Positions 1 through 17,767 are shown, counted from the first letter of the stretch. The stretch is 20,000 bases of DNA from an uncultured virus (IMG/VR IMGVR_UViG_3300046328_001173) (IMGVR_UViG_3300046328_001173); one strand, 5' to 3'. Translations and numbers: made by a program. The notes: generated by a model not told the origin, from the sequence alone.

Positions 1-80
1 GAGATGATTTTATTGAACCTATTATTCCTGTTAATATAATTAAAAATAAATTTTAATTTACATTTTAAAAAATAACCTTT

Positions 81-680
81 ATGAAAACCATAGAAGAAAA
101 AAATATCTTAAAATCTACGCCTTTTGTAGCTAAATGGAAAGAAGAACAAAAATGCCGTGAAAAAGAACACATTAATTCTTTTCCTGAGTTACAACTAGAT
201 GTAGCTTATTGAAAGGACTATTTAAATAAACATAGTTGGATTGATTTCAGTGGATTTACAAGAGATATTATTGTAGATTATACAAAAAGCCTTCCTGCAT
301 TGTTGTCTTACGTAGAACATTTAAATATGCTAGGAGATTTTAGTGCTGCTGTAAGATTTATTGCAGGAGATTTGTTTACAGATGTTGTTTTAGAAGTAAA
401 TTATGAAGATTGTGGAGGACAAAAACTATTTAAGATACCTAAAACCTTTAAGAAAGTTGATGGTTGGTTTACTAATCCTGAAAATAATCTTGTAACAGTT
501 TCTATAAATAAAAAAACTAATAGTGTTCAATTTACTATTGATGTAGACAAAGCTGGTGTTTTAGATGTTTATTTAAGACACAATGCTCTGCAATTCAGTG
601 ACTATTATAGTCTTAATTTGTTTCTATTGTATGTAGAATTTTTTAAAATGTTAAAAGCAGAAAAAAAACCAAAATTATAA
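81..680 (+). CDS. Hypothetical protein (~199 aa) with an in-frame TGA at 210-212
   Basis: ATG at 81 (MKTIEEKNILKS...) is in frame with track ORF 300..680. The only interruption is TGA in ...LDVAY*KDYLNKHSW... Confidence 0.7.
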
Positions 681-907
681 AAAAATTTGAAAGAATACTT
701 TGTAGAGCAATACGTAAATTAAATCGTAAAATGGGTAAATATAAAAATTTTTTCGTTAGAGATGAGGCTACAGATTTATATATTCCATCTAAAAAACACG
801 ACAAATATCTTAAACATCTTAAGATTGTTATTAAATCAATGGGAGATTTCAATCCTTATACTAAACTTAAAAAAGAACCTATTAATGAATATAGTTATTG
901 GCATTAA
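677..907 (+). CDS. Small basic hypothetical protein missed by the ORF track; ATA start (or ATG at 731, or a frameshifted tail of the upstream gene)
   Basis: Open frame (I/M)KKFERILCRAIRKLNRKMGKYKNFF...EYSYWH* ends TAA at 905-907. The ATA is in the same aaaatt-start context as ATGs at 5181, 6250 and 17174. An A8 run at 661-668 offers an alternative frameshift explanation. Confidence 0.55.
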   Translation: MKKFERILCRAIRKLNRKMGKYKNFFVRDEATDLYIPSKKHDKYLKHLKIVIKSMGDFNPYTKLKKEPINEYSYWH

Positions 908-946
908 CTAAACTTATTATTAAATAACTAATTTAATTTAAACTAT

Positions 947-1390
947 ATGAAAACAACAGAAGAAAAATTTAAACAGTTGTTAAAAATAGCTGTTGATAAT
1001 GGATTTGATTTAGACTTTTTACCTAGTCATTTTGATCTTTGGATAAATAATGTAGAATCTGCACACTTAAAGCCAAAAGTTTATCTTGATTTAAATCACT
1101 TTTTAATTGTGTTTGGTACATTTTGCTATCCTATTAATAATTTGATTTTAAACACTAACTTCTTTGATTGTTTATTTTTAAACACTGGATTTAGTGGAGT
1201 TCAAGACTCTATTCATTTGTCTGTAAATAATAAAGAGTATAAAACATATTGGATTGGTGAAGATATGTATGATACAACAGATGATGAAGAATCTGGACCA
1301 CCTTCTATTGATTTTATGAGGTTTCAATGGATAGTAGAAATTAAAAAAGGGTCTCCTTTAGAATGGTTGTTTAAACAATTTGATTTATAA
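947..1390 (+). CDS. Hypothetical phage protein, 147 aa
   Basis: Intact ATG..TAA ORF with an A/T-rich leader. Confidence 0.8.
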   Translation: MKTTEEKFKQLLKIAVDNGFDLDFLPSHFDLWINNVESAHLKPKVYLDLNHFLIVFGTFCYPINNLILNTNFFDCLFLNTGFSGVQDSIHLSVNNKEYKTYWIGEDMYDTTDDEESGPPSIDFMRFQWIVEIKKGSPLEWLFKQFDL

Positions 1391-1421
1391 AACTTTAAAA
1401 TCTTTAACTCTTAAAACTATT

Positions 1422-1943
1422 ATGCACAGAGTTCCAGAATTCAGAAGATTCTTAAATATTTACTACACTAGAACAAATAAACTTGTTTTTTGTAGTGTAA
1501 TACACTCATTTTCTTTTTCTAAAGTAGAAAAAATCTATTCTAAATTGACTTGGAAAATTGATTATCTCAAAGATACTGTGAAAGCAACTAACCAAAATTT
1601 TACTTTTGAAGTTGTTAAGATAGAAGAATTTGATTATATGGATATTGAAGATTCTTGTAAAGACTTGAAGATTCCTTATACTGTAGAATACAATCTAGAA
1701 GCAGTAAAGAAATATTGGAATACTAGAAAAGGAAAAAAAGAATTTGTTGAGCAATTAAAAAATCCTTCTCAACAAGTATCTTTGTTCTTTGATGATAGTG
1801 ATTACATTATTTCTTTTGATGGTAAATGGTTAAAGCAATTAATTGAAGAAGAATCTTGAACTATGTCAGATATATATGGATTTAGTGAAAATTTTTCTTA
1901 TATTTTTGAATATAATCCTCACGATATTTTTTATGTATTTTAA
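1422..1943 (+). CDS. Hypothetical protein with an in-frame TGA at 1857-1859
   Basis: Likely start is ATG 1422. After the TGA the frame continues for 27 codons (EEES*TMSDIYGFSENFSYIFEYNPHDIFYVF) to TAA 1941-1943, 20 nt before the next ATG. Confidence 0.7.
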
Positions 1944-1963
1944 TCCTTTAAACACAATATAAT

Positions 1964-2278
1964 ATGATTTGGAAATTAAATATTCCATTAAAAGACAACA
2001 AATTAACTGAATATCACAAAAAAGAATTTAATAGGTATTCTGAATTACTATCTTACATTCAAGATATATTAACAGGTAAAATAATTGATAATTTTCCTGT
2101 TCAAATAGAAGAATTTGTATTTAATGAAGAGTTTTATAATGTGTCAGAAGAAGAATATTTATTAAAATATTCAACAGAAGGTATTGATTATTTTAATGAT
2201 TATAAATTAAAACGAAATACAATATTTAATAACTTAATTGATAGTGTTTTCAACTCTTTTGTAACAAAATTAAAATGA
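1964..2278 (+). CDS. Hypothetical protein, module gene A copy 1 (paralog of 12726..13100)
   Basis: Shares W-x-L-x-I-x-L...YHxKxF...Y...ILxGxIxD...IE...FVTK with 12726..13100. ATGA overlap with the next gene. Confidence 0.85.
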   Translation: MIWKLNIPLKDNKLTEYHKKEFNRYSELLSYIQDILTGKIIDNFPVQIEEFVFNEEFYNVSEEEYLLKYSTEGIDYFNDYKLKRNTIFNNLIDSVFNSFVTKLK

Positions 2279-2652
2279 TAAGTTCTCTTGGTGATATTGA
2301 AGATATGCTAAATCAGGGTAAATATCCTGTTTTTCATCCTAAATTAGATCCAATAGACTGTACTTTATGTTGTCTTCCAACGAAAGAGTTTTTATTACAA
2401 TGTACTCATTATATTATAATAGAAAGAATCTACTGTGATTGGGCTATTGTTAGATTTGCTACTCATTCTAGTTACAAAGGAAAAAATATTCTTGTTGAAG
2501 TCGATCAATTTGTTCCAGAAGACTTAGATTTCTTTGTTAGAAAGAATGAAAAACTATTTAATTTCTATTCTCCAAAAGAGATGAATTTAATGTTATTAGA
2601 TACTTGTATGAGTTTTATATCTTATAAAGGATACTTTAAATATTTAAAATAA
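2275..2652 (+). CDS. Putative Zn-binding protein, module gene B copy 1 (paralog of 13078..13464)
   Basis: GKYPxxH-x7-CxxC-x10-CxH and C-terminal SYxGYFxY shared with 13078..13464. Confidence 0.85.
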   Translation: MISSLGDIEDMLNQGKYPVFHPKLDPIDCTLCCLPTKEFLLQCTHYIIIERIYCDWAIVRFATHSSYKGKNILVEVDQFVPEDLDFFVRKNEKLFNFYSPKEMNLMLLDTCMSFISYKGYFKYLK

Positions 2653-2659
2653 AAACTCA

Positions 2660-3695
2660 ATGAAAACACCAGAACAAATATCTCAATGGGGGGTTAAACA
2701 ACTTCATTAACAAGTATCATTTAAGAACTAATACTAACAAAGAATTGATTTGTTTGTGTTATGACCAAATTGATACACCTAAAAATGACATTAGTAATGA
2801 GTGTCGTAGATTAGTTTTAAATAAAGAGACATTGGAAGTAGTTTCTTATCCTTTTTATAGGTTTAGTGATTATACCCCTAAACAACATAAACTAGACTTT
2901 GATAAAGGTTTATTTTATGAGAAAATAGCTGGTTCGTTGTGTACTTTGCATTTCTATGACAATAAATGGAATATTTCTACAAAAGATACACCAATGGGAG
3001 AAGATAAAGTGGAGAAAAATAATGAACAAACATTCTCTGAATATTTCTTTAAAGTGTTGAATAAAACAACAAATTTAAAAGCACTAAATACTAACTTCTT
3101 TTACATCACAGAGTTTAAATTCCCTAGTGGTACTCATCATTTGATACCTAATACTGATTCTTCTATTAATCTTATTGGGTTAAGAGATAAAAAAACACTA
3201 GAAGAATTGCCTCACAATATGTTGAATAATGATTTTAATGTATTACAAGGTTTAAAATTCAAAGAGGGTAAAGAATTGTTTGATTACATTAACAATTTAG
3301 ACCCAATAGTTTCAGAAGGTTTAGTTTATGTTAATAGAGATAAAGTAACTAATGGTAACTATCAAAGATTTAAGATTAAACCCCCTCAATTTGAATTGAT
3401 TTTTAGTTTAAAAACAGTCGTTCAGTCAGATATTACTAAAGAAAGAGAAAGAAAAAGATTGAATACTAAGTGGTTGAAAGAACTTTGTCAATATAATAAA
3501 CACCGTACATTTTTAGAACTAAAAAAATATTCTTGTTTTAGAGAAGAAGTTGAAAATATTGATAAAAAAATTAAATTATTTGAAGATACTTGTAATCAGT
3601 ATTTTCATATAACAAATCCAAAAGAAACCTCTTTATTGAATGTTGAACAAGAAGTTAAAACTTGGTTGTTTTTACAGTTAAAACAAAAAACTTAA
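2660..3695 (+). CDS. T4 Rnl1-like RNA ligase with a frameshift near the 5' end and an altered motif I
   Basis: YDQIDTP..ECRRLVL..EVVSYPFYRF, motif I YEKIAGSL (usually KxDGS), motif IV EGLVYV, motif V RFKIK. ATG 2660 is one base out of frame with the main ORF; the shift lies around 2676-2693, which includes a G6 run. Confidence 0.8.
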
Positions 3696-3724
3696 AATAA
3701 ATTCTTAAATTTATAACAACTAAA

Positions 3725-3958
3725 TTGTGGTTAATACACAGAGTAGAACAATGTTCTAGTGTACCTGTATTTGCATTTTTAAATGAAGAAGAGGCTTTAA
3801 ATAAACTATATGATTTAAATAATATTAAAAAATCTAGTTTATATCAAGATATTGGTGAAAAAGCTTACTCTATTCTTGTAAAGTCTTATCAATATATTTT
3901 ACAAGAAGAACCTGTTTTAATTGAAGGTAAAGTCTTTCAATCGTTTCAAAATCTTTAA
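3725..3958 (+). CDS. Hypothetical protein, 77 aa
   Basis: TTG start, TAA stop, fills the gap between neighbours. Confidence 0.65.
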   Translation: MWLIHRVEQCSSVPVFAFLNEEEALNKLYDLNNIKKSSLYQDIGEKAYSILVKSYQYILQEEPVLIEGKVFQSFQNL

Positions 3959-3967
3959 TTTTAATTA

Positions 3968-4327
3968 ATGAAGACTGCTGAATTAAACAATTCTGAAAAT
4001 ACAAAAAAATATCTTGTTAGTAGAACTCTACAATTAGGTAATATTGTATTTAGAAGAGCTTTAGGGCATTATATAGCTCTATATAAAAGAGAAAATAGAA
4101 ATTCTAGTAATTTTTATGGAGTTATATTATCTTCTGATGACTACTATAATTCTCAACAAGGTATTTTACTTAATAGTAAACTTACAAAAGAAAAGTCTTT
4201 AACTTATTTTACGGGGATTGTGTTAATTAAATCTTTTCCTGATAATAATTTTGTTTTTGGTCAATTGACTAACAAAGAATTAAAAACAATTAAAGATTAT
4301 GTAAAATTGTTTAAAACAAAAATATAA
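3968..4327 (+). CDS. Hypothetical protein, 119 aa
   Basis: Intact ATG..TAA ORF. Confidence 0.75.
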   Translation: MKTAELNNSENTKKYLVSRTLQLGNIVFRRALGHYIALYKRENRNSSNFYGVILSSDDYYNSQQGILLNSKLTKEKSLTYFTGIVLIKSFPDNNFVFGQLTNKELKTIKDYVKLFKTKI

Positions 4328-4384
4328 TTTTATGCTTTATACTTCACTAAAACATATCAATAATTACTTTAAAAATCACTAAAA

Positions 4385-5104
4385 ATGAAACTATTTATTA
4401 GTAGTAAAACAGCTTATTGGGAAGTAAAAGAACCTTCTTTTAAAGATGTATTGTTCCCTAATGTTGGATTAAAATGTAGTTTACAAATACCTCTAATTTT
4501 TAAAAGAGTAGAAAAAAATGAAATTATTTCTACATTTTTAATTGAAGGTGGTTGTAATTATTCTATTCCTGTTACAAATACTTAGTGTAAAATTGTAGAT
4601 ATTGTATTAGAGTGTGATAAAGAAGAATTATTTTTTTATACAACAGTTATATTAGAAGATATGAATATTCTTGTAATAAAAATAGATTCTTCTATTGTTG
4701 ATTATTCAATTCTTAACTTCTATCAAGATTATAATGAAGAAGACTTACAATTAACTAAACAATTAAACAAGTCTTCTAACAGTATTTATTATTTTAAATT
4801 AAATAAAGACAACAATTCATTACATTTAAGTGAATACAATTGGATATCAAATATTTTTTTACTTAAAGATTTTTATCTTCGTAATAATTTTAAAAAAGTA
4901 TTTGTTACTAGATGTGTAAATAAAATTAAGGGTGTTCTTTGTCTATTAATGAGAAAATCAATCTATTTTATTGAAGATATTGTGTATTGACGTACAATGC
5001 ATACATCTCATAGTTCTAAATTATCAGATATTGATGTATTAGGTTCACATATTAATCTTTATGAAAAATTTAGTAAAAGTTTATTGACTAATAATGAATA
5101 TTAA
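4385..5104 (+). CDS. Hypothetical protein (~239 aa) with in-frame TAG 4583-4585 and TGA 4988-4990
   Basis: Track ORFs 4385..4585 and 4661..4990 share a frame. The linker (NT*CKIVDIVLECDKEELFFYTTVILED) and tail (VY*RTMHTSHSSK...NNEY) are open to TAA 5102-5104. Confidence 0.75.
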
Positions 5105-5180
5105 AAAGGTTTCATTTTAATTAAATAAATTATTTATAAATTTTTTAAATCTTAAACATTAGACTTTAAACACTAAAATT

Positions 5181-6200
5181 ATGACACAAAGTCCATTTAG
5201 TTATATTGATACATTCAAAAAAGAACACGTAAGACTAATTCTTGAAAAAAATCATTATCAAAGTAAAGATGAAAAGGGTGCTAACGTCTATGAACATCTT
5301 AATTTTTATCTTATTATTACTTATTCACCTACACATAAAATAGGTGGAACTAATACTTCTATTGTACAAAGTAGCAATGGATATTTATTTTAATCTCGTA
5401 ATTTATTATTAATTGAAGGTACAAATACACCTGACCAGAATGGATTTAAAAAATATCGACAACCTCTTCTTTTTATTTGACAAAGTTAGAAATGAGTATC
5501 ATTGTAATATAAACGATGAAATTATCATTTATGGAAAATGGTGTGATTCAGGTATTAAAAACAATCATTCAATTTCACAAGTTAAAACTAAACAATGGGT
5601 TATATTTGCTATTAAAATCAATACTAAATATGTAGATAATTTTGTTGAGTTAGCTGACGAAAAAAATAGTGTCTATAATGTTCTTAAATGGGGAACTTTT
5701 AAAGTAATTATTGATTATAATCAATTTAACTTTAATTGTTAGAAAGACTCTAATTCAAATTTACCAAAAGAGTTACAAGATTTAACTAATGAACACACTT
5801 TAAAATGTCCTGTATCTAAATTTTTTGGTATTGATGATCTTGGAGAAGGTTTAGTTCTTAAATCTGATACTTATATTAGTCACAGAAGTAAAGAATCTGT
5901 AATTATGAAGATTAAAAATTCTGATTACGATAAAAGTTTTGTAAAACAAGTTGTAGAAAAGACTTCTACTCCTAATTAAATGAATTTCTAAAAAAATCTA
6001 TTAAACCTGCAAGATTAGAACAATTTTGTACATTTTTACAAAATCAAGGTGAAGAAATATCAATGAAAAATGTTGTTAAATTTCAAAATCTTGTTATTGT
6101 AGATATCATTAAAGAATGTAACAATCTATCAAATGATTTACAGCTTACTCAAAAAGAGTGTGCTTCATTCTTTAAAGAAAAAATTAAGCTAATTAAATAA
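5181..6200 (+). pseudogene. Rnl2-type RNA ligase, disrupted: TAA 5391-5393, frameshift ~5440-5455, TAG 5740-5742, frameshift ~5974
   Basis: Motifs in order across frames: HKIGGTN (motif I), F*SRN (usually QSRN), IYGKWCDSG (usually GEW-x-G), IFAIK, CPVSKFFGIDDLGEGLVLK (motif IV), IMKIKN (motif V), then C-terminal RLEQ...MKN...DIIKE ending TAA 6198-6200. Confidence 0.8.
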
Positions 6201-6249
6201 TAAAATAAATTAAATCTTTTCAAATTTCTTACTTCAAACCAATAAAATT

Positions 6250-6516
6250 ATGAAAGCAATCGTAGAAGGTACAATGAAAATTTACAAAACTAATTACCTA
6301 GTTCAAAGAATCACAATTGTGAAAGAATTGGATAGAAAAGAAGATTCTCAAAATCTTCAATCATTGATCAAGTTTCAACCAAGTTATAATGGATTGGCTA
6401 CTTATACAATGGGTGGAGATGGTTGGAGCTATAAAAAAAGTGAAGATTTGCATAATACTTTAGTTAAAGTTAGTGAATCAGGACAAAAATTCTTTTCATT
6501 AGCAACTAGATTTTAA
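6250..6516 (+). CDS. Hypothetical protein, 88 aa
   Basis: Intact ORF followed directly by a terminator. Confidence 0.8.
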   Translation: MKAIVEGTMKIYKTNYLVQRITIVKELDRKEDSQNLQSLIKFQPSYNGLATYTMGGDGWSYKKSEDLHNTLVKVSESGQKFFSLATRF

Positions 6517-6531
6517 ATTTTAAAGTTCATC

Positions 6532-6570
6532 AAACCTTAATCTATTAATTTAGATTAAGGTTTTTATTTT
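6532..6570 (+). terminator. Intrinsic terminator
   Basis: Perfect 13-bp stem AAACCTTAATCTA / TAGATTAAGGTTT, 6-nt loop, T-rich tail. Confidence 0.85.
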
Positions 6571-6605
6571 ATTCTTATGAAATTACAACTAATCTTCAAA
6601 ATAAA

Positions 6606-6839
6606 ATGTTAAATCCTATAAACCTGTTATGCAATAATATTAAAAACAAATTTGTTAGATTAACTAACATAGATAGAAAAGAATTAACTATTGATAATGA
6701 TAACTATACTAATGTAAAAGTTACAAAAGAATTTATATTTGTTAGTCTTTCTAATTTAAATTATGAATTTTATCAATTCAATAATCTAGAAATTTGTTTT
6801 AAAAATAATCGTAAAAAAGAACTATTATGCAAACATTAA
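6606..6839 (+). CDS. Hypothetical protein, 77 aa
   Basis: ATG..TAA ORF overlapping the next start. Confidence 0.65.
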   Translation: MLNPINLLCNNIKNKFVRLTNIDRKELTIDNDNYTNVKVTKEFIFVSLSNLNYEFYQFNNLEICFKNNRKKELLCKH

Positions 6840-7411
6840 GTTTTGAAATTGCTCGTAAATTGAACGCTGTTATTATTAATGATATGTTAATCATTAAGCA
6901 GTATAAAATAAAGAAAAATAAATATGTTCTTTCTAGAACTATTGAAATTGGGTTAAAAAAATTTGATTCTTTAGAATGTTTTTTAAAAGAATTGGGTTTT
7001 AATTTCGAGATGGGTAATCTAAAAGATTATTTTCTAGATTGTTTAAAAGAACTATTATTTACAACAATCTCTGATTTAATTCAAGATACAGATTTATTTG
7101 AATTGAATGAAAGCATTAAATTCATTGTTGATAAAAAAGTCTGGTTATATCAAAACTTTATTATCAATATTAAAGAAAGAGGTAACATTTATTTTACTGT
7201 TAATGAAGTAAAGTATAAGATACCTTTTAATTACCACACATTTTTTAAATCGTACAACAATTCAAGAATGTTTTTAATAGATTTTATAGAAAGTTGTAAA
7301 TTATTTGGAATATTTATTTCAGATAATGATAGAATTAATATAAAGTCTTTAAAATTACATTGTAATGTAGTAAGTCTTGATGCAGAAGATTTTTATGTTA
7401 CTCAATATTAA
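6827..7411 (+). CDS. Hypothetical protein, 194 aa
   Basis: Long intact ORF followed by a terminator. Confidence 0.8.
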   Translation: MQTLSFEIARKLNAVIINDMLIIKQYKIKKNKYVLSRTIEIGLKKFDSLECFLKELGFNFEMGNLKDYFLDCLKELLFTTISDLIQDTDLFELNESIKFIVDKKVWLYQNFIINIKERGNIYFTVNEVKYKIPFNYHTFFKSYNNSRMFLIDFIESCKLFGIFISDNDRINIKSLKLHCNVVSLDAEDFYVTQY

Positions 7412-7428
7412 TATTTAATTGATAATTT

Positions 7429-7470
7429 GAACAGTGTAGAGTAGTTTATATGACTTTACACTGTTCTTTT
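7429..7470 (+). terminator. Intrinsic terminator
   Basis: Stem GAACAGTGTAGAGT / ACTTTACACTGTTC with one G-U pair, followed by TTTT. Confidence 0.8.
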
Positions 7471-7484
7471 AACTAAACTTTTTT

Positions 7485-7841
7485 ATGACAACATTTGATA
7501 GATTTCTTTATTTAAAACAATTAATTAACAGTAGTCTTGCAACAGAAGAACAGTTACAAGAATATCAAACACTTAAAAATAAACCAGAAATTAGTAGACA
7601 ATTAAGTGTGTATAACTTTTCTTTACTTTCAAATGAATTAGCTTTATCTAATTGGACTTTAAAACAAAAATTAAGCCATATTATTGATGTTTATGGTTAT
7701 GTGTCTAAGTATATAAAAGAAATGTTAGATTGTATTGAAGAAGGCAAAGAAATTAAAGGAGATAGTATACTAATTCATTATGAAGGCAGATATTTTCTAA
7801 CTCAAGCACTTGGTCAATATGTTATTAACGGACTAATTTAA
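7485..7841 (+). CDS. Hypothetical protein, 118 aa
   Basis: Intact ATG..TAA ORF. Confidence 0.8.
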   Translation: MTTFDRFLYLKQLINSSLATEEQLQEYQTLKNKPEISRQLSVYNFSLLSNELALSNWTLKQKLSHIIDVYGYVSKYIKEMLDCIEEGKEIKGDSILIHYEGRYFLTQALGQYVINGLI

Positions 7842-7867
7842 ATTTTACATTTTAAACTAAACTTTTT

Positions 7868-8257
7868 ATGACAAAATTAGAATCTTTTTTAGGTAAAAAA
7901 TTAACTGATTTGTAGGAAATTGAAAATTGTCTACAAGAACTAGAATTAATTAAAGAAAATTTAATTGAAAAAAAGAATAGTTCTGATTGGTATAAAAACA
8001 TATTAAATAGTTGGTACAATTATGGCAAAGGTTTTGTGTATATATTGTCTATTGATTGTATAAAAAGTTTTTGTTACATCAATGTTGAATTTGAATTAGG
8101 TTCTACTTCACAATATAGTGATTCTTTTTATGCAAATATAAATTATGACATTTTCTTGAAAAGATTTACCAAAATTGACTTTCAAGATGTAATTGATCAA
8201 TTAAATCAAATAAAAAGCTCTCATAAAGAGTTACAATACTTGTTTAATATTAAATAA
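7868..8257 (+). CDS. Hypothetical protein (~129 aa) with an in-frame TAG at 7913-7915
   Basis: ATG 7868 has the same leader as 7485. MTKLESFLGKKLTDL*EIENCLQELELIKE... runs in frame into track ORF 8036..8257. Confidence 0.75.
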
Positions 8258-8260
8258 GTT

Positions 8261-8820
8261 ATGAATTATTTAATTTACACTAGATTAAACTATATTAGTC
8301 TAGTGTATAAATCAATTATAACTATGAAAATTAATTTTGAAATACCTATTAATAAATTTACAAATGAGCAATATTATTTAACATCTTCTATAATAACAAA
8401 TAAAAAACTATATGTCTTAATAAGAGAAAATAAACAACTAATTAAAGTTATTGACAATATTATTTGGTATTTATATAAAAAAAATGTAATATTAAACATT
8501 TAAATAATAATTATGATATTGTATTGGAACAATTTAATGAAAAAGAGTTAAAAAAATATAATAAAACAGAAAATTCTATTGAAGAATTGTTAGTTAATTT
8601 AGACCTTAAAAGAAAAAATACTTTAATTTCTAGTTATTCTGATAATGGTGAAATGATTTTATCTGAACAAACTTCTTTTGTTGATAAGTTATTTAAATGG
8701 AAGAAACATAATACTATTATTTGTATTTGTTATAATCAATATCTTTTAGACTATATTAAAAAGAAACTTGATAATGATTGTGTTTTATATTACATTAATG
8801 AAAGACTTGTTGAATACTAA
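8261..8820 (+). pseudogene. Hypothetical gene probably split by a frameshift in the A8 run at 8477-8484
   Basis: The frame of track ORF 8524..8820 is open back to the A8 run (KKCNIKHLNNNYDIVLEQF), where it meets ORF 8261..8503. The true start may be ATG 8303. Confidence 0.55.
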
Positions 8821-8853
8821 AAATTATGGAATTACTATATAATACCTAAAATA

Positions 8854-9153
8854 ATGGAATATACTTATAAAGAATTAATAGAACACACTAAATTTTTTAC
8901 TTCTAAATTTAGTGAAATATGTATTGGAGGAGTAAGTGGTGGTTGGTTTAGAGTTAGTTCAGATTATAGTTTTAAAAGGGTAAATTTAGGAAAACTATAT
9001 AATTACTATGAAGAATGTTATATATCTATTTATACAAATTCTTTAACTGCAAAATGTAGTATTAAACAAATTTGTTTAATAACAGTAGAAGGAGAATTTA
9101 TTGTATTCGATACTTGGGAAAGCTTTAAAGATTTTATACTTAAAAAAATATAA
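8854..9153 (+). CDS. Hypothetical protein, 99 aa
   Basis: Intact ATG..TAA ORF. Confidence 0.75.
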   Translation: MEYTYKELIEHTKFFTSKFSEICIGGVSGGWFRVSSDYSFKRVNLGKLYNYYEECYISIYTNSLTAKCSIKQICLITVEGEFIVFDTWESFKDFILKKI

Positions 9154-9156
9154 AAA

Positions 9157-9317
9157 ATGTATAATACTCACACCAAACCCATTTAATTTTACACCTTTCT
9201 GATTTATTTAGTGAGTCTTTAGAAAAATATAGTTGTAATACAGAAATATAAGATTTGTCAATAAATTGTGAAATTATTGAAGTTGATTTGATTGATGTAA
9301 ATAATTTGAATATTTAA
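9157..9317 (+). pseudogene. Possible small gene remnant
   Basis: ATG 9157, then a shifted frame LILHLSDLFSESLEKYSCNTEI*DLSINCEIIEVDLIDVNNLNI with an internal TAA at 9249-9251. Confidence 0.35.
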
Positions 9318-9345
9318 AAATTTTTAAACATAAACTTTTAATCTT

Positions 9346-9588
9346 ATGAATAATTTAAAATCTTTTATTGGTTTAAAAATCATTGCTACTCTTGAATCAA
9401 TCGATTGTAATGATTATGCTTTACTACTTTCTGATGGAAAAGTTTTATCCTTTGAATGTGGAGATATAAATAATAGTCTCTGTTGTGAATCAGCAGATTT
9501 TCAACCTGGGTATTTTATATATGAAAGTATTAAAGATTATGAAGAAAATAGAAAATGCACAAATAAACCATTTGATTTTGAAAATTAA
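9346..9588 (+). CDS. Hypothetical protein, 80 aa, with a CCE motif
   Basis: Intact ORF; ...LSDGKVLSF...CCES. Confidence 0.75.
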   Translation: MNNLKSFIGLKIIATLESIDCNDYALLLSDGKVLSFECGDINNSLCCESADFQPGYFIYESIKDYEENRKCTNKPFDFEN

Positions 9589-9606
9589 TTACTTAATCTT
9601 AAACCT

Positions 9607-10694
9607 ATGTTATTAGAACTTAAAATTACAAATTTCAAATCTATTAAAGAACAACAGACACTATCAATGCTTACTTCTAGTAGAGTTAAAACAAGATACA
9701 ATGAAGCTGTTGTTGTAAATGATGTAGAAATATTAAAAACCTCTGTTATTCTTGGTAAGAATAATGGAGGAAAAAGTAATATTCTTGATGCTTTTAAAGT
9801 GTTGAAAGATATCGTTAAAGGAGAACTTTATGAAAAAAATTCAAGTTTTCAATTTGATATTCAAACAATTAATGAACCTTCGATACTTGAATTAGATTTT
9901 GTTTATGCTGATAATAGATACATATATTATGTTGAATTTAAGGATAAACTTATTCTAAAAGAATTTGTGTTTTTAAATAATATGCGTAAATCTTTACTTA
10001 TTACAAGAGACGGCTCTATTATTAAATATAGTAATAATTATAAAAGCACTAGATTAAAAAAAGTATTTGACCATCAATCCATTATAACAGAAGATTCAGA
10101 GGTATATAAGTTTATTATTGATAAAGTATGTATTTATAATAATGAAAAATGCTTATCTTCTTTTAGAGAGTTATATAAAAAACATATTAATAAACTTTCT
10201 TACATTATTAGAGCTTTTGATACAGGTATTTTAGAAATGGAGTTGGATTCTGATAATAAAATATTGTGTATCGTCAGAAATTTTAATAAAGAAGAAGAAC
10301 TTAAAACAATAAGAGTAAGTTTAGATTTTCAATCTTATAAATCAAAAAAATTAATCCGATTTTTAGCTTTTTAATAAAAATTCTTGAAAAGGGTAAAATA
10401 TTTATTGTAGATGATTTTGGAGAAAGTTTTCATTCTTTATGCAATCACGCTATTGTAGAAAGGTTTTATGAAAAAGAGTTTAATGTAAATAATTCTCAAT
10501 TCGTCTTTTCTACTCAAGATATCGCATTAATAGAAAACTATTTGTTTGACAAAGACCAAATTACTTTGATTGATAAATATTATTTTGGAAAAACTGAAAT
10601 TAGCACTGTTTCGGATTTTAAAAGCATAAAAAATGACGTAAATATATGTTCTTGGTATTTAGCTGGAAAATTAGGTGGTTTTCTTTGTAAGTAA
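9607..10694 (+). pseudogene. AAA_21 / RloA-AbiEii-like ABC-type ATPase, frameshifted at the T5 run 10368-10372
   Basis: N-terminus MLLELKITNFKSIKEQQTLSM and Walker A GKNNGGKSN. In the shifted frame: Walker B region IFIVDDFGESFH, QFVFSTQD, DKDQITLIDK and terminal YLAGKLGG, to TAA 10692-10694. Confidence 0.85.
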
Positions 10695-10821
10695 TATTAA
10701 TTAAAATAATTCTTAATTTAAAAGTTAAAATCTTATGAAAATACTTGTAGTACTTGACCTTTTCATTAATTAATTATAATTAAAAAAATTTCTGTTCAAA
10801 AATTGTAAATAAAAACTTTTT

Positions 10822-11385
10822 ATGTATTATAATATAAGCCATTTAAAATCAGTTACAAGTGTAAGTTATATTAAAATAGAAGATCTAATTAAAGATGAAT
10901 TTAAATTAGATTCTTATTTAGTAATTGACATTTTATTAGTAAAAACATCTTATCAAGAATATGAAGGTAAATCTATTTTTACTATTGATAATAGAAAAAT
11001 CACTGGATATGAGAACATTATTGTTCAAGGTTTGTTAAAAAATAATAAAAAATTAGCTATTCTTCAAGATTATGGAGATGATTGGAGAGAGTTAGAAAAT
11101 TTGTCATATATAAGACAGTATTTTGGTTTTGAAGAAGATGATGATACAGAATTGCAATATTCAATAGCCATCTCAGAAGATAATAAATTATATATGGTTT
11201 GTGCAAATATAGAAGAAACTACTTGCCATTTATTTGAATTATTAAATTTACCAGAAGATTCTTTTAATAAATTATACAACTATGAAAATCTAGGAGGAGT
11301 AAAAAGGCCTTACTGTATTAAAAATTTTAAACTCAATATCTTATTATTAGGTGAAATCGATTTAAACTTTTTAAAAATTACTTAA
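10822..11385 (+). CDS. Hypothetical acidic protein, 187 aa
   Basis: Long intact ORF. Confidence 0.8.
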   Translation: MYYNISHLKSVTSVSYIKIEDLIKDEFKLDSYLVIDILLVKTSYQEYEGKSIFTIDNRKITGYENIIVQGLLKNNKKLAILQDYGDDWRELENLSYIRQYFGFEEDDDTELQYSIAISEDNKLYMVCANIEETTCHLFELLNLPEDSFNKLYNYENLGGVKRPYCIKNFKLNILLLGEIDLNFLKIT

Positions 11386-11386
11386 T

Positions 11387-11716
11387 ATGACAATATTTAA
11401 TGCTTTTGTAGAAGTTATATTAAATTCTTCTTACCATATTCACGAATGGGATTCTATTAATGATGAAATAGATGAAGAATGTGAGTTATTTTATCAATAT
11501 AAAGGAGACATCACTACAAAATGGAACAAAAATTTAGAATATTTTGTATAGGAACTTCACTATAAAAATAAAATAGTTGCATTTATAAAAAAAGAATATT
11601 ATGATCACAATGAATTTTATGATTATATATTCACAGATTATGGTTATGAATACTTATTTAAAAAATTTACAGATTTAGCTAAAAGAAACTTTAAAAATCG
11701 AAACTGTTATGAATAA
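11387..11716 (+). CDS. Hypothetical protein (~109 aa) missed by the track, with an in-frame TAG at 11549-11551
   Basis: ATG 1 nt after the previous stop. MTIFNAFVEV...LEYFV*ELHYKNKIVAF...RNCYE ends TAA overlapping the next ATG (11709), filling the gap exactly. Confidence 0.8.
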
Positions 11717-12029
11717 TAAAAATTTAGAGTTATTAGAAAATGTTTGGCTTTACAATTCTCTTTCTTATAGTTTTATGCAAATATCTTGTTGTCAATGGGA
11801 TGAAGAAGAGGAAGATGAAGAAGATATTAATAAATTTAGCTATAACATAGAGAAAAGAATTATTACAGAATTTTCCAGATTAGATAAAATCTCTATTTAT
11901 TATAATGAAGCTTATCATAAAGATTTCATTTATGATTGGAAGATTGTAAAAGATAAAAAAATAATTGAATCTTTAAATAATGTACATACAGAATTAGAAA
12001 ATATTTTTAATACCACTAAACTTTTATAA
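11709..12029 (+). CDS. Hypothetical protein, 106 aa, with an acidic tract
   Basis: Intact ORF; WDEEEEDEED. Confidence 0.8.
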   Translation: MNNKNLELLENVWLYNSLSYSFMQISCCQWDEEEEDEEDINKFSYNIEKRIITEFSRLDKISIYYNEAYHKDFIYDWKIVKDKKIIESLNNVHTELENIFNTTKLL

Positions 12030-12031
12030 TT

Positions 12032-12718
12032 ATGCAAAAAATACCTCAAATCTTATTAGATTACTTTAATAAGTTTCATAATAAAGAGTTAAATGAGACT
12101 ATTACGAATTTTAAAGTTAATTATGAAAACCTAGAATATGATTTTGAAATTTGGATTGATAGTTTTGATATAGATAAACCTAAAAACAATTTTACAAATG
12201 TTTCTATATTAAACCTTATTTCTTTTATGTATGATAAGCTAAATCCTGTATATAATTTTTATGATTTCTTTTCAGGAAAATTACGTATTTCAGATTTCTA
12301 CTCTGAAGAATATACTTATGAAAAAGAAGATAAACTTATCAAATCCTATAGTCAAGCTATTTTAGATTTTTCTGGTTATAAAAAAGATAATTTTGATTTT
12401 ATTGAAAATACTACAATAGATGTAGATCAATATGGAAATGTTGATATTATTTGTGTTGATAGAAAATCTATTAGACAAAAATTAGAATATTATGTTTATA
12501 AATTCTTACCAAAAGAATATTTCAGTTGTTTTGAAGAACTGCCTAAAACTTACAGTGAAGCTACAGAAAAATTAAATCTTTTAGAACAATTAAAAACTAT
12601 TGATTTTTCTAGTCTTAAAGAAGAACAACAAAAAGAACTAAAACTTGTATTGTATTATCAGAAGTTAAAATTAGAATGGTATCATAAAACAGTAATGATT
12701 AATCACTTAAACGAATAA
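12032..12718 (+). CDS. Hypothetical protein, 228 aa
   Basis: Long intact ORF. Confidence 0.85.
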   Translation: MQKIPQILLDYFNKFHNKELNETITNFKVNYENLEYDFEIWIDSFDIDKPKNNFTNVSILNLISFMYDKLNPVYNFYDFFSGKLRISDFYSEEYTYEKEDKLIKSYSQAILDFSGYKKDNFDFIENTTIDVDQYGNVDIICVDRKSIRQKLEYYVYKFLPKEYFSCFEELPKTYSEATEKLNLLEQLKTIDFSSLKEEQQKELKLVLYYQKLKLEWYHKTVMINHLNE

Positions 12719-12725
12719 ATAAATT

Positions 12726-13100
12726 ATGAAACAATTTAAATGGGAATTGAAAATTGCACTCGCAACAGGTCCAGATAATACTTACCATATTAAATACTTC
12801 GACAATATTTTTGATTGTATTGATTATATGGAAGAAATATTAAATGGAAATATAGAAGATGATTGGGATTGTCATATTGAATCTTATCAGGAACACCAAC
12901 ATTTAAAAACATTAACTGATGAACAAATTAAACAAGCAATAAAACCTAGAACAGAAAATTCTTATTATTCTTCTTTTGAAAATTTTAAAGAACTTATTAA
13001 AAGAAATGAAAAAAAATACAATAAAAAAGAATTTCTAAATCAAATGATTTCAGATTTTGTAACAAAAGTTTCTTCTTATGACAATACTAGAAAAAGTTAA
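12726..13100 (+). CDS. Hypothetical protein, module gene A copy 2
   Basis: Paralog of 1964..2278; overlaps the next gene. Confidence 0.85.
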   Translation: MKQFKWELKIALATGPDNTYHIKYFDNIFDCIDYMEEILNGNIEDDWDCHIESYQEHQHLKTLTDEQIKQAIKPRTENSYYSSFENFKELIKRNEKKYNKKEFLNQMISDFVTKVSSYDNTRKS

Positions 13101-13464
13101 AGATACTTTAAGTAAAGGAAAGTATCCAATAATACATTTAGAAAAAGATAATTTTAAATGTCAAATGTGTATGCAAATAGATAACAATTATTTACAACAA
13201 TGCAGACATTTTATTATTGTTACAGATCTCTATGATGGTGGATTTATTGGTAGAATAATAACTAGTTCTCCTAATTACGGAAATATTAAAATAGTTAAAG
13301 AACAGTATCATATTGATACAAATATTAAAAATTTAGGTATGTTTTTTAAACCTTTAAAGTATCATTCTAACCTTATTCATCAATATTTTTTTACTTCTGA
13401 TTGTATGGAAGAAGGTTCTTATAGAGGATATTTTGATTATGTTTTAAACAGTCAATTAACTTAA
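13078..13464 (+). CDS. Putative Zn-binding protein, module gene B copy 2
   Basis: GKYPIIH...CQMC...QCRH...SYRGYFDY; paralog of 2275..2652. Confidence 0.85.
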   Translation: MTILEKVKDTLSKGKYPIIHLEKDNFKCQMCMQIDNNYLQQCRHFIIVTDLYDGGFIGRIITSSPNYGNIKIVKEQYHIDTNIKNLGMFFKPLKYHSNLIHQYFFTSDCMEEGSYRGYFDYVLNSQLT

Positions 13465-13485
13465 ATCTAAACTAAATTAAAACTT

Positions 13486-14088
13486 ATGTCAATAGAAGAA
13501 AAATTCTACAAAATATGTTGTCTTCTTAATCATTTAAGGAATAATAGAACTAAATTGCACCCTTATGATATGAATTACACTTATATTTTATTTGATATTG
13601 TAGAAGATTCAACACCTTTTAAGATAATTCATAATGTAATTGAAACAGAATTAATTTCAGTTGAATTATTCAATTTATTGTTTATTTCTGATTGATTTGC
13701 TTGGTTATTCCCAGAAGAAAAAAGATTTGAACCTATTGAAATATCTTTAAAATGAAAAGACGGTAATTTTATTATTGAAACTCTTGAAGATTATAAAAAA
13801 TTTCAATATTTAAGTTATTATAAAGAATGTACAGCAATTGATAGATTGTGTGATGAGTTGTTTAATAATTCAAATGAAATTTCTTCAATTAAATTTTTTA
13901 CAAAAGAAAAAGTATTAAAGTTACAAATCTATGAAAATAGAAAAAATAGGCTTCCTTATACTTGTTGTTCTCACAATGGTTGTAATAGAGATGAAAATTA
14001 CGAAAGTAAGTTGCTGCTTACTATAAATGAAATGATTTGTTCTTGTGGTAAATATATTCAAATAGAAATAAATAATTTTTATACTTAA
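13486..14088 (+). CDS. Hypothetical protein (~200 aa) with a Cys-rich C-terminus and two in-frame TGAs (13693-13695, 13753-13755)
   Basis: Track ORFs 13486..13695 and 13846..14088 share a frame: FISD*FAWLFPEEKRFEPIEISLK*KDGNFIIETLEDY... The C-terminus CCSHNGC...CSCGK suggests a Zn ribbon. Confidence 0.75.
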
Positions 14089-14174
14089 ATAGTTGAAATA
14101 TTTTTTCTTTTATTAAATTTCACTTTTTTAAAACTTTATTTTAGATTTATAATCTAATTTAATCAAAAAAAAAT

Positions 14175-14405
14175 ATATTTAAAGATGTGTGGAACGTAAA
14201 TAGGAATTTGAACAAAACATTTACTCATATTGAACATACTCTTGATGCAGACAATGAAATCGATGAGAAGATTACTAATGGAATTACTACAATTGGAGTA
14301 AAATACAAAGGTGTTTGGTACACATCTAAACTAAAAGTAAAATACAAAATAGCTGACATTAAAAAATAGGTGGAAACTAAAAATACTAAAAAAATTGAAT
14401 CTTAA
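14175..14405 (+). CDS. Hypothetical protein (~76 aa) with a probable ATA start and an in-frame TAG at 14367-14369
   Basis: aaaaat-ATA-TTT-AAA-GAT-GTG-TGG; ...ADIKK*VETKNTKKIES to TAA 14403-14405. Confidence 0.6.
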
Positions 14406-14523
14406 TTTGTAAAACAGAAATAATTATTAGCTTATTTTTAATTGAACAGGTTTTTTTTATGATTAAATTTCAATTAAGCTTTATTTAAACTCAAAACTAT
14501 AAATACTTCATTAATACGTATAA

Positions 14524-14811
14524 AAGAAATATCTAGAAATACATAATTTTACGCTATTTTGTATATTTAACAATAGTGAGCATTGCTATTTTGATTTCAA
14601 GGAAATTTTCAAAAAATGAAATATTCAAAATCAGGATATAGAATATGCAGTATTAGAAGTAAGTGAATTTCAAAAAGTTAAGTTAGTTAATAGAACGCTT
14701 ATGTGAGATAGTTTAAGCGTCTTTTTATTGAATGAAAAAGCAAAGGAAGTAGCTGCTCCTTGTCAAATAGCTCTATTAGTTTTATATCAAAATAGTAAAA
14801 CAATTAACTAA
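14524..14811 (+). pseudogene. Unannotated frame (~95 codons) with two in-frame TGAs (14617-14619, 14704-14706) and no clear start
   Basis: KKYLEIHNFTLFCIFNNSEHCYFDFKEIFKK*NIQNQDIEYAVLEVSEFQKVKLVNRTLM*DSLSVFLLNEKAKEVAAPCQIALLVLYQNSKTIN, TAA 14809-14811. Confidence 0.55.
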
Positions 14812-14843
14812 ATTGACTTTGAAGGGATCAATTTTAATACAAT

Positions 14844-14872
14844 AAAAAAACCTATACATTAAGTCGTATAGG
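14844..14872 (-). terminator. Intrinsic terminator for the minus-strand gene pair
   Basis: Stem CCTATAC / GTATAGG preceded by A7 (T7 tail on the minus strand), 9 nt past the stop at 14882. Confidence 0.75.
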
Positions 14873-14881
14873 CCTTGAAAT

Positions 14882-15430
14882 TTAAAAACTATTTCCTATA
14901 TTAACAGAATTAAAATAAATCCATCTAGCTGTATCTATTCTATGTCCATCAATTAATTTTTGTTTTACAGTATCTAAATCTAGATTTGGACCAATCTTTA
15001 ATACTTTTAAGTTCTTAACAGAATCTACAAATTTATTCTCTTTTAACAATCTTAATTTATTTTCAAATAAATTTGCTTGTTCAAGAGCTTGTATTTGATT
15101 AATTAATTGATTAGTAAAAGCAAACTGTATTCTTCTTTCACTTATTACTCTAGCTGCAAAATCTTGAAAAAATCCAGTAGCTTGTGCAAAATTGTATATT
15201 CCTAAAAATCCTAATAAAATACCTACACTCCAATTAGTAACTTTAAGCCTTTTTTCTTTTGCAAGTTTCTCTCTTTCAAAGATTTCTATTCTAGCTTGTT
15301 GATTTTTTAAAAAATCTGATAATTCAGCAATTAGTTTAGATTGAGTAAAAAACATTGTTTCTAATTTGTCTCTTAATTCTTTTGACTCGTCAAAATAAGC
15401 TTTTAAATCATCAATCTCGTTGTTGTTCAT
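14882..15430 (-). CDS. Coiled-coil single-pass membrane protein, 182 aa
   Basis: Charged helical N-terminus, hydrophobic WSVGILLGFLGIYNFAQATGFF segment, own terminator. Confidence 0.8.
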   Translation of the reverse strand: MNNNEIDDLKAYFDESKELRDKLETMFFTQSKLIAELSDFLKNQQARIEIFEREKLAKEKRLKVTNWSVGILLGFLGIYNFAQATGFFQDFAARVISERRIQFAFTNQLINQIQALEQANLFENKLRLLKENKFVDSVKNLKVLKIGPNLDLDTVKQKLIDGHRIDTARWIYFNSVNIGNSF

Positions 15431-15593
15431 AAATACTGTCGTTTAATATGTAATAATTGTTGCCAAAAATGTTTTTTCTTAATCTTTCTTCTAATGCTTT
15501 TCTTTTTAAGTTTTCTTTATTATTCATAATAGAGCAAGAACTTAAATAAATAGTAAAAAACAGAAAGATTATTAAACTAGAAAAATATTTCAT
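15411..15593 (-). CDS. Small putative lipoprotein, 60 aa
   Basis: MKYFSSLIIFLFFTIYLSSC: basic N-terminus, hydrophobic core, lipobox LSSC; overlaps the downstream start. Confidence 0.7.
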   Translation of the reverse strand: MKYFSSLIIFLFFTIYLSSCSIMNNKENLKRKALEERLRKNIFGNNYYILNDSIYEQQRD

Positions 15594-15713
15594 TTGAATA
15601 ATTAATGTGAGTTAAATTAAAAAATAGTTCATAAAACTACAAAAATTTAACCAAGATTGAAAAATATAATAATTTATTACTAACAAACTTCTTACAAATG
15701 ACCTCAAATTAAA

Positions 15714-15857
15714 ATGAAACTTTCAAACTTCTTTTTTTATTGCTGTTTTATAATAGCTTTAACAATTATTGTTTATTTAATTTTTATTACACATCACCCT
15801 ATTTACATAATTTCTGGTATAATTCTTTTTATATTGGAAGTATTTTCTTCAAATTAG
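15714..15857 (+). CDS. Small two-TM protein (47 aa) missed by the track
   Basis: MKLSNFFFYCCFIIALTIIVYLIFITHHPIYIISGIILFILEVFSSN; ends TAG, followed by two codons and TAA 15864-15866. Confidence 0.6.
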   Translation: MKLSNFFFYCCFIIALTIIVYLIFITHHPIYIISGIILFILEVFSSN

Positions 15858-15883
15858 TGTCAATAATTAAATCAAACTACTTT

Positions 15884-16135
15884 ATGAAAACAAATATCTC
15901 TACAAATATAATAGTTCTTTCAACAGATTCTTTTGGTTTTGAAGTTATTGGTAAAGTAATTTCAGAAAAGAAATTGTTGTATAAATTAAATTCTGGTGTT
16001 CAAGTAATTTTTAAGAATTTAGAAGAAATAAAAAGGTCTTTAAAAGAAGATTTTGATGGTTCTAGACTTACTATTATTAAACGTAGAATTAGAGTTCCAT
16101 TAATCAGTAAATTTGACTCAAATTTTCAACTTTAA
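15884..16135 (+). CDS. Hypothetical protein, 83 aa
   Basis: Likely start ATG 15884 (MKTNISTN...) within track ORF 15740..16135. Confidence 0.7.
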   Translation: MKTNISTNIIVLSTDSFGFEVIGKVISEKKLLYKLNSGVQVIFKNLEEIKRSLKEDFDGSRLTIIKRRIRVPLISKFDSNFQL

Positions 16136-16139
16136 ATTT

Positions 16140-16403: not shown

Positions 16404-16617
16404 AAGAGATGGTAGAATTTTAGAGGCAGCCTTTGCAAATCGTCAAAAAGCTTCAAAATTAAACTTAAGAGTATTTGAAGATACTTTTGGAGCTGGATTT
16501 TTCTTTCGTATTGTTAGTATTAGTTATTATGGTAATTTGATTAAAATCAATGAAAATTGTTCTGGCGTTAAAGGAGAATTTAATTCTTTAACCAAACAAG
16601 GATTTATTGTAATTTAA
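16369..16617 (+). CDS. Hypothetical protein, 82 aa
   Basis: Intact ATG..TAA ORF. Confidence 0.75.
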   Translation: MEQVGKEVIQSKRDGRILEAAFANRQKASKLNLRVFEDTFGAGFFFRIVSISYYGNLIKINENCSGVKGEFNSLTKQGFIVI

Positions 16618-17734: not shown

Positions 17735-17767
17735 AAAACATAACCATAAAAATTTGTCAAAAATTTA

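Follow-up and report, generated by a model that had tools for sequence, protein, structure and literature searches.

Apparent decay of three enzyme genes and a bias among in-frame stop codons in an AT-rich stretch of uncultured viral DNA

The 20,000-nucleotide stretch of DNA recorded for the uncultured virus IMGVR_UViG_3300046328_001173 (hereafter the window, meaning the stretch at its full length) encodes two RNA ligases, one resembling T4 RNA ligase 1 (Rnl1) and the other T4 RNA ligase 2 (Rnl2), and an AAA_21-type ATPase, and the genes of all three contain lesions. With moderate confidence, we attribute these lesions to ordinary AT-biased decay under relaxed selection and not to a special G-to-A process. 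The three accessory enzyme genes would have lost selective constraint and would now be decaying in the DNA itself, through the mutations expected in an AT-rich genome, that is, one-base slips in homopolymers, GC-to-AT transitions on both strands, and other substitutions. The TGA and TAG codons within genes that have no relatives and are undamaged in other respects probably call for a separate explanation, namely read-through or recoding in which TAA serves as the reliable terminator. An earlier note on this DNA had pointed to ATA codons in place of ATG starts and to changes in conserved enzyme motifs, and had argued from them that the damage is not confined to stop codons. All the codons that it listed are present (ATA at 677-679 and 14175-14177, AGA at 2808-2810, AAA at 5536-5538, GAT at 5545-5547, and the codons for SYKS at 10333-10344), and the damage does reach beyond stop codons; the frameshifts, a TAA in place of a conserved glutamine, and the substitutions of catalytic residues make a pure codon reassignment insufficient.

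Lesions in the ligase and ATPase genes

The Rnl2-like gene (5181-6200; all features in this section lie on the plus strand) is clearly a pseudogene. It is broken into three frame pieces (5181-5453, 5455-5976, and 5976-6200), and its full length, the C-terminal domain included, is collinear with intact homologs of 340-352 amino acids. A HMMER search with the middle piece returned 600 proteins with E values up to 0.001, the best of which (P0019, 352 amino acids, 59% identity) passes the Pfam family PF09414 with 40.5 bits against a cut-off of 27. The pieces of the window themselves matched no Pfam family, one of them was matched by phrog_548 (E = 2e-5), and sequence searches of the PDB with the pieces gave nothing relevant. 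The first frameshift is located in an A6 run (5448-5453) and the second in AATTAAAT (5974-5981), after which the C-terminal domain goes on in another frame. Translational bypass at the first break was considered and rejected, as the spacing between motifs I and III equals that of the homologs plus one base.

Two stops also lie in frame within the Rnl2-like gene. TAA at 5391-5393 replaces a glutamine (CAA to TAA, a C-to-T change) that is found in 5/5 close homologs and in 42 of 50 overall, while TAG at 5740-5742 stands for a tryptophan (TGG to TAG) present in all five close homologs. In motif III, GKWCD replaces GEWCG just as the earlier note had read it, with lysine (AAA, 5536-5538) and aspartate (GAT, 5545-5547) where all 50 aligned homologs have glutamate and glycine. 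A further change turns proline into leucine (CTT 5310). The motif I lysine, the EGLVL of motif IV, and the KIK of motif V are retained. The five closest homologs agree with one another at 55 columns; the window departs from them at 11 of these, and nine of the departures require a single step: five G-to-A, two C-to-T, one G-to-C, and one A-to-G. Relative to the sites at risk, C-to-T changes (2 of 11.3) are no less frequent than G-to-A changes (5 of 37.4).

The Rnl1-like gene (2660-3695) was assigned by phrog_562 (E = 3.7e-10). Its ATG (2660) opens 11 codons in frame 1, whose product (MKTPEQISQWG) resembles the N-termini of the homologs, and the rest of the gene follows in frame 2 after a +1 frameshift, correctable by removing a single G, in a G6 run (2688-2693). 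The homologs are at most 53% identical to the window, a value reached by P0002/P0003, and P0006, P0013, P0015, and P0016 among them carry PF09511; the reading frame of the window found no match in Pfam even at E values up to 1. Of most consequence for catalysis is motif I, in which KxDG has become KIAG: the aspartate present in all 14 homologs is replaced by alanine (GCT, 2928-2930), a change that needs an A-to-C transversion. Forty columns are invariant apart from isolated exceptions, and the window deviates at four of them (threonine to serine, the motif I aspartate to alanine, serine to proline at CCC 3381, and isoleucine to leucine), compared with 0-2 deviations in each of the 14 homologs. 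When the 82 conserved columns (kept in at least 11 of the 14 homologs) are considered, 12 deviations are found, comprising four G-to-A, no C-to-T, and five AT-to-GC changes, with transversions and two-step changes making up the rest. The four G-to-A changes include the glycine-to-arginine substitution at AGA 2808-2810, which had been described as the loss of ECRG to ECRR; the arginine is indeed there, but the position is only moderately conserved, with glycine in 11 and serine in 3 of the 14 homologs. A second proposed change in this protein, ST-x-G to STKD, has to be abandoned, because the residue that follows STK is variable in the subfamily (K, M, S, G, or T). Other catalytic residues are kept, namely the motif I lysine, the motif III glutamate (E150), E218-G219 of motif IV, and K237 and K239 of motif V.

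According to a published study (PMC1807946), the aspartate or histidine of motif I is essential for the later steps of ligation in T4 Rnl1 and Rnl2, and the motif III glutamate is strictly essential in a related ligase of Deinococcus. By analogy, both ligases of the window should be catalytically dead. The Rnl1-like gene was either disabled recently or has been retained for a role other than ligation; its product is dead or has ceased to be a ligase. A non-catalytic role is possible because the T4 counterpart, gp63, also aids tail-fibre attachment, and does so independently of ligation.

The gene for the AAA_21-type ATPase (9607-10694), which runs in two frames, likewise appears to be a pseudogene. 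PF13304 was matched over 9589-10374 with 38.6 bits (cut-off 27), phrog_5836 matches both pieces, and the Walker A motif is intact (GKNNGGKSN, aligned with GPNNAGKSN). Only two homologs were found, both remote (P0170 and P0171, with 32% and 26% identity), and their signatures read S-T-G-T and S-N-G-T. Relative to them the window has SYKS (10333-10344, TCT TAT AAA TCA) for S-x-G-T, which agrees with the earlier reading of this motif, as well as DD for DE in Walker B, glutamine for the histidine of the H-loop, and internal deletions. The frame is lost through the absence of one base in one of two T5 runs (10360-10372). In terms of base changes, glycine to lysine takes two G-to-A steps, threonine to serine and glutamate to aspartate an A-to-T step each, and histidine to glutamine a T-to-A step.

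In-frame stops and start codons in genes without relatives

A different kind of interruption is seen in plus-strand genes that have no known relatives. The gene at 81-680 has TGA in frame at 210-212, and the coding signal continues beyond it; the gene at 4385-5104 contains TAG 4583 and TGA 4988; the gene at 7868-8257 starts with the ATG that has the best start context of the window (8.8, scored with a matrix of upstream context built from 33 ATG starts of the window), meets TAG at codon 16 (7913), and then has 113 open codons without an ATG. The gene at 11387-11716 contains TAG 11549 and, if this is read through, terminates at a TAA overlapping the ATG of the following gene (11709), and the gene at 13486-14088 contains two TGAs (13693 and 13753). 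Under a codon model trained on long open reading frames (ORFs), which gives about +0.3 in frame and negative values out of frame, the coding signal persists in frame past TGA 210, TAG 4583, TAG 7913, TAG 11549, TGA 13693, and TGA 13753, and continues less clearly past TGA 1857, TGA 4988, and TAG 14367. The approximately 670 codons that lie 3' of the first stops in these genes contain no TAA and no visible frameshift, and their coding scores (0.25-0.66) are undiminished. In-frame TGA and TAG remain rare, nine being counted over the 1125 codons that make up the affected genes.

The only in-frame TGA or TAG with homologs to set against it is TAG 5740, with tryptophan opposite, and it lies inside the Rnl2 pseudogene. 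No homologs of the read-through ORF 4385-5104 were found, tblastn against phages returned nothing for 13486-14088, and for the gene at 81-680 both an exact search with a 44-base pattern and tblastn against phages were empty; three stretches in IMG/VR encode relatives of the latter gene, as judged from exact 8-residue words. No suppressor tRNA was detected by a tRNA scan in the window, which is part of a 78-kb contig.

Coding segments of the window continue in frame in 6 of 9 cases when they end at TGA or TAG, compared with 3 of 34 when they end at TAA (P = 9e-4). In five control loci TGA was followed by continuation in 0 of 15 cases and TAG in 5 of 11; three of these TAGs, all in the AT-rich relative L002, separate same-frame neighbours with an ATG of their own, so the continuation test yields false positives. 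TAG recoding in L002 was considered and rejected, since an ATG follows each TAG within 1-29 residues. In the window, ATGs 3' of in-frame stops have start contexts of -4 to -12.6 (in the gene at 4385-5104, -4.1 for ATG 4661 and -12.6 for ATG 4997), as against 1.2 and 2.2 for true neighbours in the same frame. Eight internal stops are robust, and they comprise four TAGs, three TGAs, and a single TAA, which is that of the Rnl2-like gene; none of the six in genes without relatives is TAA. Models of symmetric or general mutation expect 53%-60% TAA, which gives P = 0.009-0.023 for the eight stops and P = 0.004-0.011 for the six. The stop-type bias in these remaining genes is real, and it is the sole part of the present observations that could be new.

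Genetic codes 4 and 15, TAA as a sense codon, and ciliate-type codes were each rejected for the window as a whole, as TAA ends nearly every gene, with the next start following at once, and as TGG is far more frequent in frame than TGA. Two readings fit the bias, either read-through of TGA and TAG or an almost purely plus-strand G-to-A mutation, and the former is favoured because of the symmetry of silent sites, the spectrum of changes in the Rnl2-like gene, and the abundance of the lineage, all presented below. As a tentative proposal, to which we give somewhat less than an even chance, the phage would end translation reliably only at TAA and would translate both TGA and TAG, by means of two suppressor tRNAs or an equivalent, which would mean that two stop codons are reassigned in the same genome and, in one case, in the same gene.

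Similar damage might be expected if the whole stretch were an element already dead or defective, such as a prophage that an AT-rich host carries passively while it decays, evolving neutrally under the standard code and short of TAA among its new stops by chance. About ten genes do carry some lesion (stops, missing ATGs, or frameshifts), ORFs of at least 100 amino acids cover 0.67 of the window versus 0.82-0.89 of AT-rich relatives, TGA 2276 is an ordinary terminator with an ATGA overlap, and the continuation test is prone to the error met in L002. Chance would, however, have to account for stop types with probabilities of 0.004-0.023, and a neutral stretch would have to run through those 670 or so codons without acquiring a TAA or a frameshift when the Rnl2-like gene, over 340 codons, has accumulated a TAA and two frameshifts. 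The poor contexts of the ATGs past the stops likewise speak against a dead element, which seems unlikely to us.

The context matrix also bears on the ATA codons. At the 33 starts, the preferred bases are T at -16/-15, A from -14 to -12 (21-26 of 33), and T at -2 and -1 (20 and 25 of 33, respectively); no Shine-Dalgarno motif was found upstream of them, and G is almost absent from the 25 bases 5' of the starts. The motif AAAC[TC] occurs within 22 nucleotides 5' of 11 of the 33 starts versus 18 of 305 other ATGs. ATA 14175-14177, on the plus strand, heads an ORF without an ATG and has a start context of 5.0, which places it in the top 0.8% of positions (of 802 ATA triplets, 6 reach this value). 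ATA 677-679, on the same strand, overlaps an upstream TAA stop (678-680) and could be a degenerate or non-canonical start of an ORF ending at 907; it scores 2.3, in the top 4.6%, a value reached by 34 of the 802 ATA triplets. The rival ATG 731 scores -8.6, the lowest of the 33, and the 18 codons from 677 to 730 score 0.008, which is not coding-like. ATA as a start is thus plausible for 14175 and weaker for 677, and the suggestion that both replace ATG starts fares accordingly. Each of the two ATA codons represents an ATG that was lost or else a weak start of non-canonical type.

Mutation spectrum and presence of the lesions in DNA

The three enzyme genes contain a mixture of lesions: four one-base indels in homopolymers, C-to-T changes, AT-to-GC changes at conserved sites, and transversions, with G-to-A as the commonest class. 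The four frameshifts, GCT 2928, CCC 3381, CTT 5310, and TAA 5391 are not of the G-to-A type and were outside the list of the earlier note. The prominence of G-to-A appears to stem from codon make-up and not from a special process, because conserved glycine, glutamate, aspartate, and tryptophan codons are rich in G and place more G than C sites at risk. Silent sites in the window are strand-symmetric, as they are in the AT-rich relatives L001, L002, and L007: at four-fold sites the share of G equals that of C (0.036 each), with T (0.556) above A (0.372), and at two-fold sites the share ending in G is 0.123 versus 0.145 ending in C. The inferred G-to-A changes occur in GG, GA, and GT contexts alike, with no common dinucleotide. 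When the window was compared with related reads from four sequencing runs, A-to-G (31) and T-to-C (18) differences were set against G-to-A (16) and C-to-T (11), a weak comparison in which the pieces are short and variants may have been counted repeatedly; the window has A or T opposite G or C more commonly than the reverse, on both strands, which suggests general AT drift. A deaminase-type attack would be recognised by strand-specific G-to-A changes in a preferred context without other lesions, and this is not the pattern found in the window. We infer that relaxed selection is what allowed the enzyme genes to decay.

A single plus-strand G-to-A process, through deamination of C in the template strand by a deaminase or a strong asymmetry of replication, might still have produced the stops, the ATA starts, and the glycine, glutamate, and aspartate changes, with the other lesions arising later. 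A model restricted to G-to-A changes predicts TGA and TAG alone, in equal shares, as is seen among the robust stops (three TGAs, four TAGs, and one TAA). Both ATA codons lie in start-like contexts, and, with the reservation that different gene sets are compared, the window has less glycine, methionine, and aspartate and more lysine than AT-rich relatives have. The equality of G and C and the excess of T over A at four-fold sites are, however, the opposite of what a long-term bias of this kind would leave, the rate of C-to-T per site is not below that of G-to-A in the clearly neutral Rnl2-like gene, and the changes share no dinucleotide context. Hits on about 6% of G sites across all genes should kill a phage, yet identical sequence is present at depths of 25-31 in two samples. 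Four indels, five AT-to-GC changes, and the transversions would also be left unexplained, and we regard such a process as less likely still than a dead element. The directional G-to-A change advocated in the earlier note therefore fails for the three enzymes, on account of the C-to-T rate in Rnl2, the five AT-to-GC changes in Rnl1, the symmetric four-fold sites, and the mixed contexts, and survives for the stops, 7 of 8 of which are TGA or TAG as it would have them.

Several points weigh against ordinary decay of the enzyme genes, and some of them favour the G-to-A process at the same time. The directions of change were assigned by parsimony from homologs at most 59% identical, with no close genome to polarise them. 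With the stops of the genes without relatives counted as derived from TGG, a pooled strand test finds 6 hits on about 98 G sites and none on 128 C sites (P = 0.007), which would indicate a real plus-strand excess of G-to-A. The Rnl1-like gene, with its four G-to-A and no C-to-T changes, points the same way; it also retains an open frame of 343 codons with most of the catalytic residues, and may still be under selection. The scarcity of TAA among the robust stops, described above, is a further difficulty. Finally, decay leaves unexplained why a gene with four disruptions should persist in a lineage that is abundant in several samples.

The lesions are present in the DNA. Words of the window occur in six freshwater runs, none of them listed as RNA, and four of these runs (X1-X4) were compared along it. 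A 14,922-base Logan contig from X1 (depth 25.4) equals positions 1-14104 with no differences and no gaps, and Logan contigs from X2 (depth 27-31) equal 1-5185 and 5173-10619 with no differences and 10690-16867 with two. Among the matches listed for X3, eight contig pieces are identical to the window, one of them spanning 13953-14579 and with it ATA 14175; for X4, six of the eight records listed (151 letters each) are identical. The identical X3 and X4 pieces listed cover TGA 1857, the Rnl2 codons 5253-5310, ATA 14175, and TAG 14367. No indel was reported in the contigs of the runs at any of the four frameshift sites, the G6 run of the Rnl1-like gene in X1 and X2 included. X1 and X2 represent different samples from different studies, reassembled independently, and they may include the source sample of the window itself.

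An artefact of sequencing or assembly, whether homopolymer errors or the miscalling of modified bases that the earlier note had raised, would agree with the position of all four frameshifts in homopolymer runs. An indel is indeed polymorphic at such a run: at 4323, just 5' of the stop of the gene at 3968-4327, a one-base insertion (A) is carried by part of the population in X1 (depth 13.8 of 39.2) and X3 (28.5 of 57.3), so homopolymer-length variants segregate in the population. Miscalling or homopolymer error behind the lesions is nevertheless very unlikely, because the two independent assemblies reproduce the window at depths of 25-31 without gaps at the frameshifts and because the many 151-letter records suggest short reads, the platform itself being off record. 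Editing of transcripts from A to I (read as A to G), which the earlier note had offered as a means of restoration, would take TAG and TGA to TGG, ATA to ATG, AAA to GAA, GAT to GGT, AGT to GGT, and AGA to GGA in one step each, but is scarcely credible, since four frameshifts, TAA for glutamine (CAA), CTT for proline (CCT), GCT for aspartate (GAT), and CCC for serine lie beyond its reach and the enzymes would stay broken.

Two further features of the coverage were seen. Contig depth declines along the window in both X1 (25.4 to 17.4) and X2 (31 to about 14), and the X2 assembly fragments into short contigs at about 16.9-19.5 kb, which suggests strain variation or a gradient of packaging or replication. 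In addition, 3553-3702 and 12376-12403 each include about 28 bases in common with deeper contigs (depth 19-148, in all four runs), followed by unlike sequence; these may be short sequences shared with other, more abundant genomes.

Genomic setting, related systems and significance

The window has a GC content of 19%-25% in each 1-kb piece (about 22% overall), and its ORFs are small, densely packed, and nearly all on the plus strand. Recognisable families are limited to four genes, those of the two ligases, the ATPase, and an HNH endonuclease; the remaining ORFs have no known relatives in Pfam or PHROGs, and scans for tRNA genes and Rfam families found none in the window. Positions 1-8000 showed no DNA similarity to GenBank phages. 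In IMG/VR no close relatives were found for the Rnl1-like gene, the ATPase gene, or ORF 12032-12718, and ORF 13756-14088 yielded nothing beyond a chance match of 12 residues. We read the source as an uncultivated, very AT-rich, phage-like genome from fresh water, possibly with a host among the Bacteroidota. Among reference genomes, the closest homologs of the Rnl1-like gene are on short contigs binned with metagenome-assembled genomes of Cytophagales (47% identity) and Flavobacterium (36%). The contig binned with Flavobacterium (L085, 5134-11144) carries 14 clustered tRNA genes with no suppressor among them, a cluster typical of a large phage and not of a host chromosome. Synteny was sought in 57 metagenome, 26 viral, and 80 genome loci reached through Rnl1 or Rnl2, and beyond both ligases it amounted to one weak match (E = 0.008, to the HNH ORF), and no close genome emerged.

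The HNH endonuclease gene (17174-17734; phrog_6050, E = 1.1e-27) is intact and encodes an N-terminal helix-turn-helix domain, and its product aligns only to the C-terminal half of phrog_6050 (positions 198-378 of 402). A two-gene module of no known family is present twice, at 1964-2652 and 12726-13464, with overlapping genes in each copy; ORFs 1964-2278 and 12726-13100 share 28% identity (E = 3e-7), as do ORFs 2275-2652 and 13078-13464 (E = 2e-14). Long stretches without a convincing ORF are confined to 9153-9346, 14405-14880, 17734-18099, and 18437-18777. The stretch at 14405-14880 lies between the plus-strand genes and two minus-strand ORFs (14882-15593), and it may serve regulation or hold divergent promoters.

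The ligases of the window combine family hallmarks with departures from them. With T4 RNA ligase 1 (gp63; PF09511/phrog_562) the Rnl1-like protein shares the phrog_562 match, the motif I lysine, the motif III glutamate, the EG of motif IV, and the KxK of motif V; it differs in the KIAG of motif I, in the serine-to-proline and threonine-to-serine changes, in an N-terminus split off by an extra G, and in the lack of a Pfam match. The Rnl2-like gene agrees with T4 RNA ligase 2 (PF09414/phrog_548) in collinearity over the full length, the motif I lysine, EGLVL, and KIK, and departs from it in the lysine and aspartate of motif III, in its two stops and two frameshifts, and in the deletion of a short C-terminal segment. 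Broken accessory genes of phages and AT-rich bacteria, which are dispensable, also show nonsense changes of a single base and slips in homopolymers; the window is unusual in the number of genes hit and in having almost no TAA among its new stops.

Cytidine deaminases of the APOBEC3 type cause G-to-A hypermutation of retroviruses, and its typical products resemble the changes that drew attention to this DNA: tryptophan to stop, methionine to isoleucine at starts, glycine to arginine, serine, or aspartate, and glutamate to lysine. The window differs from such genomes in that the changes have no shared context, G is not depleted at silent sites, other lesions (C-to-T, AT-to-GC, and indels) accompany them, and the sequence is both clonal and abundant. 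Phages with recoded stops (TGA to tryptophan in code 4, TAG to glutamine in code 15) provide a second comparison, and the window is like them in its low GC content, its in-frame TGA and TAG codons, and its use of TAA as the main terminator. In the available parts of the literature, however, such phages have one recoded codon per genome or block, whereas the window would have both, once in one gene, and rarely. Low GC content and the loss of TAG and TGA stops have been tied to recoding in phages, as stated in the preprint by Borges et al. (10.1101/2021.08.26.457843). A non-exhaustive search of the literature, which took in the available portions of that preprint and of the Mgcod preprint, found no phage in which both TAG and TGA are reassigned.

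For annotation, these observations imply that the in-frame stops of one phage contig may be a mixture of true pseudogenes and possible recoding, and that such a contig should not be labelled wholesale as using an alternative code or dismissed as junk. For the biology of the lineage, the state of the ligases is the most telling. The RNA-repair module of T4 counters host anticodon nucleases; with both RNA ligases decaying, this module would appear to have become dispensable in the lineage represented by the window. If TGA and TAG are indeed both translated, the stops in genes without relatives that look like products of G-to-A change would be tolerated sense codons, and only the three accessory enzymes would be decaying. 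Reading the two codons together would also widen the range of code changes seen in phages and would provide an example from nature of a system that uses only one stop codon.

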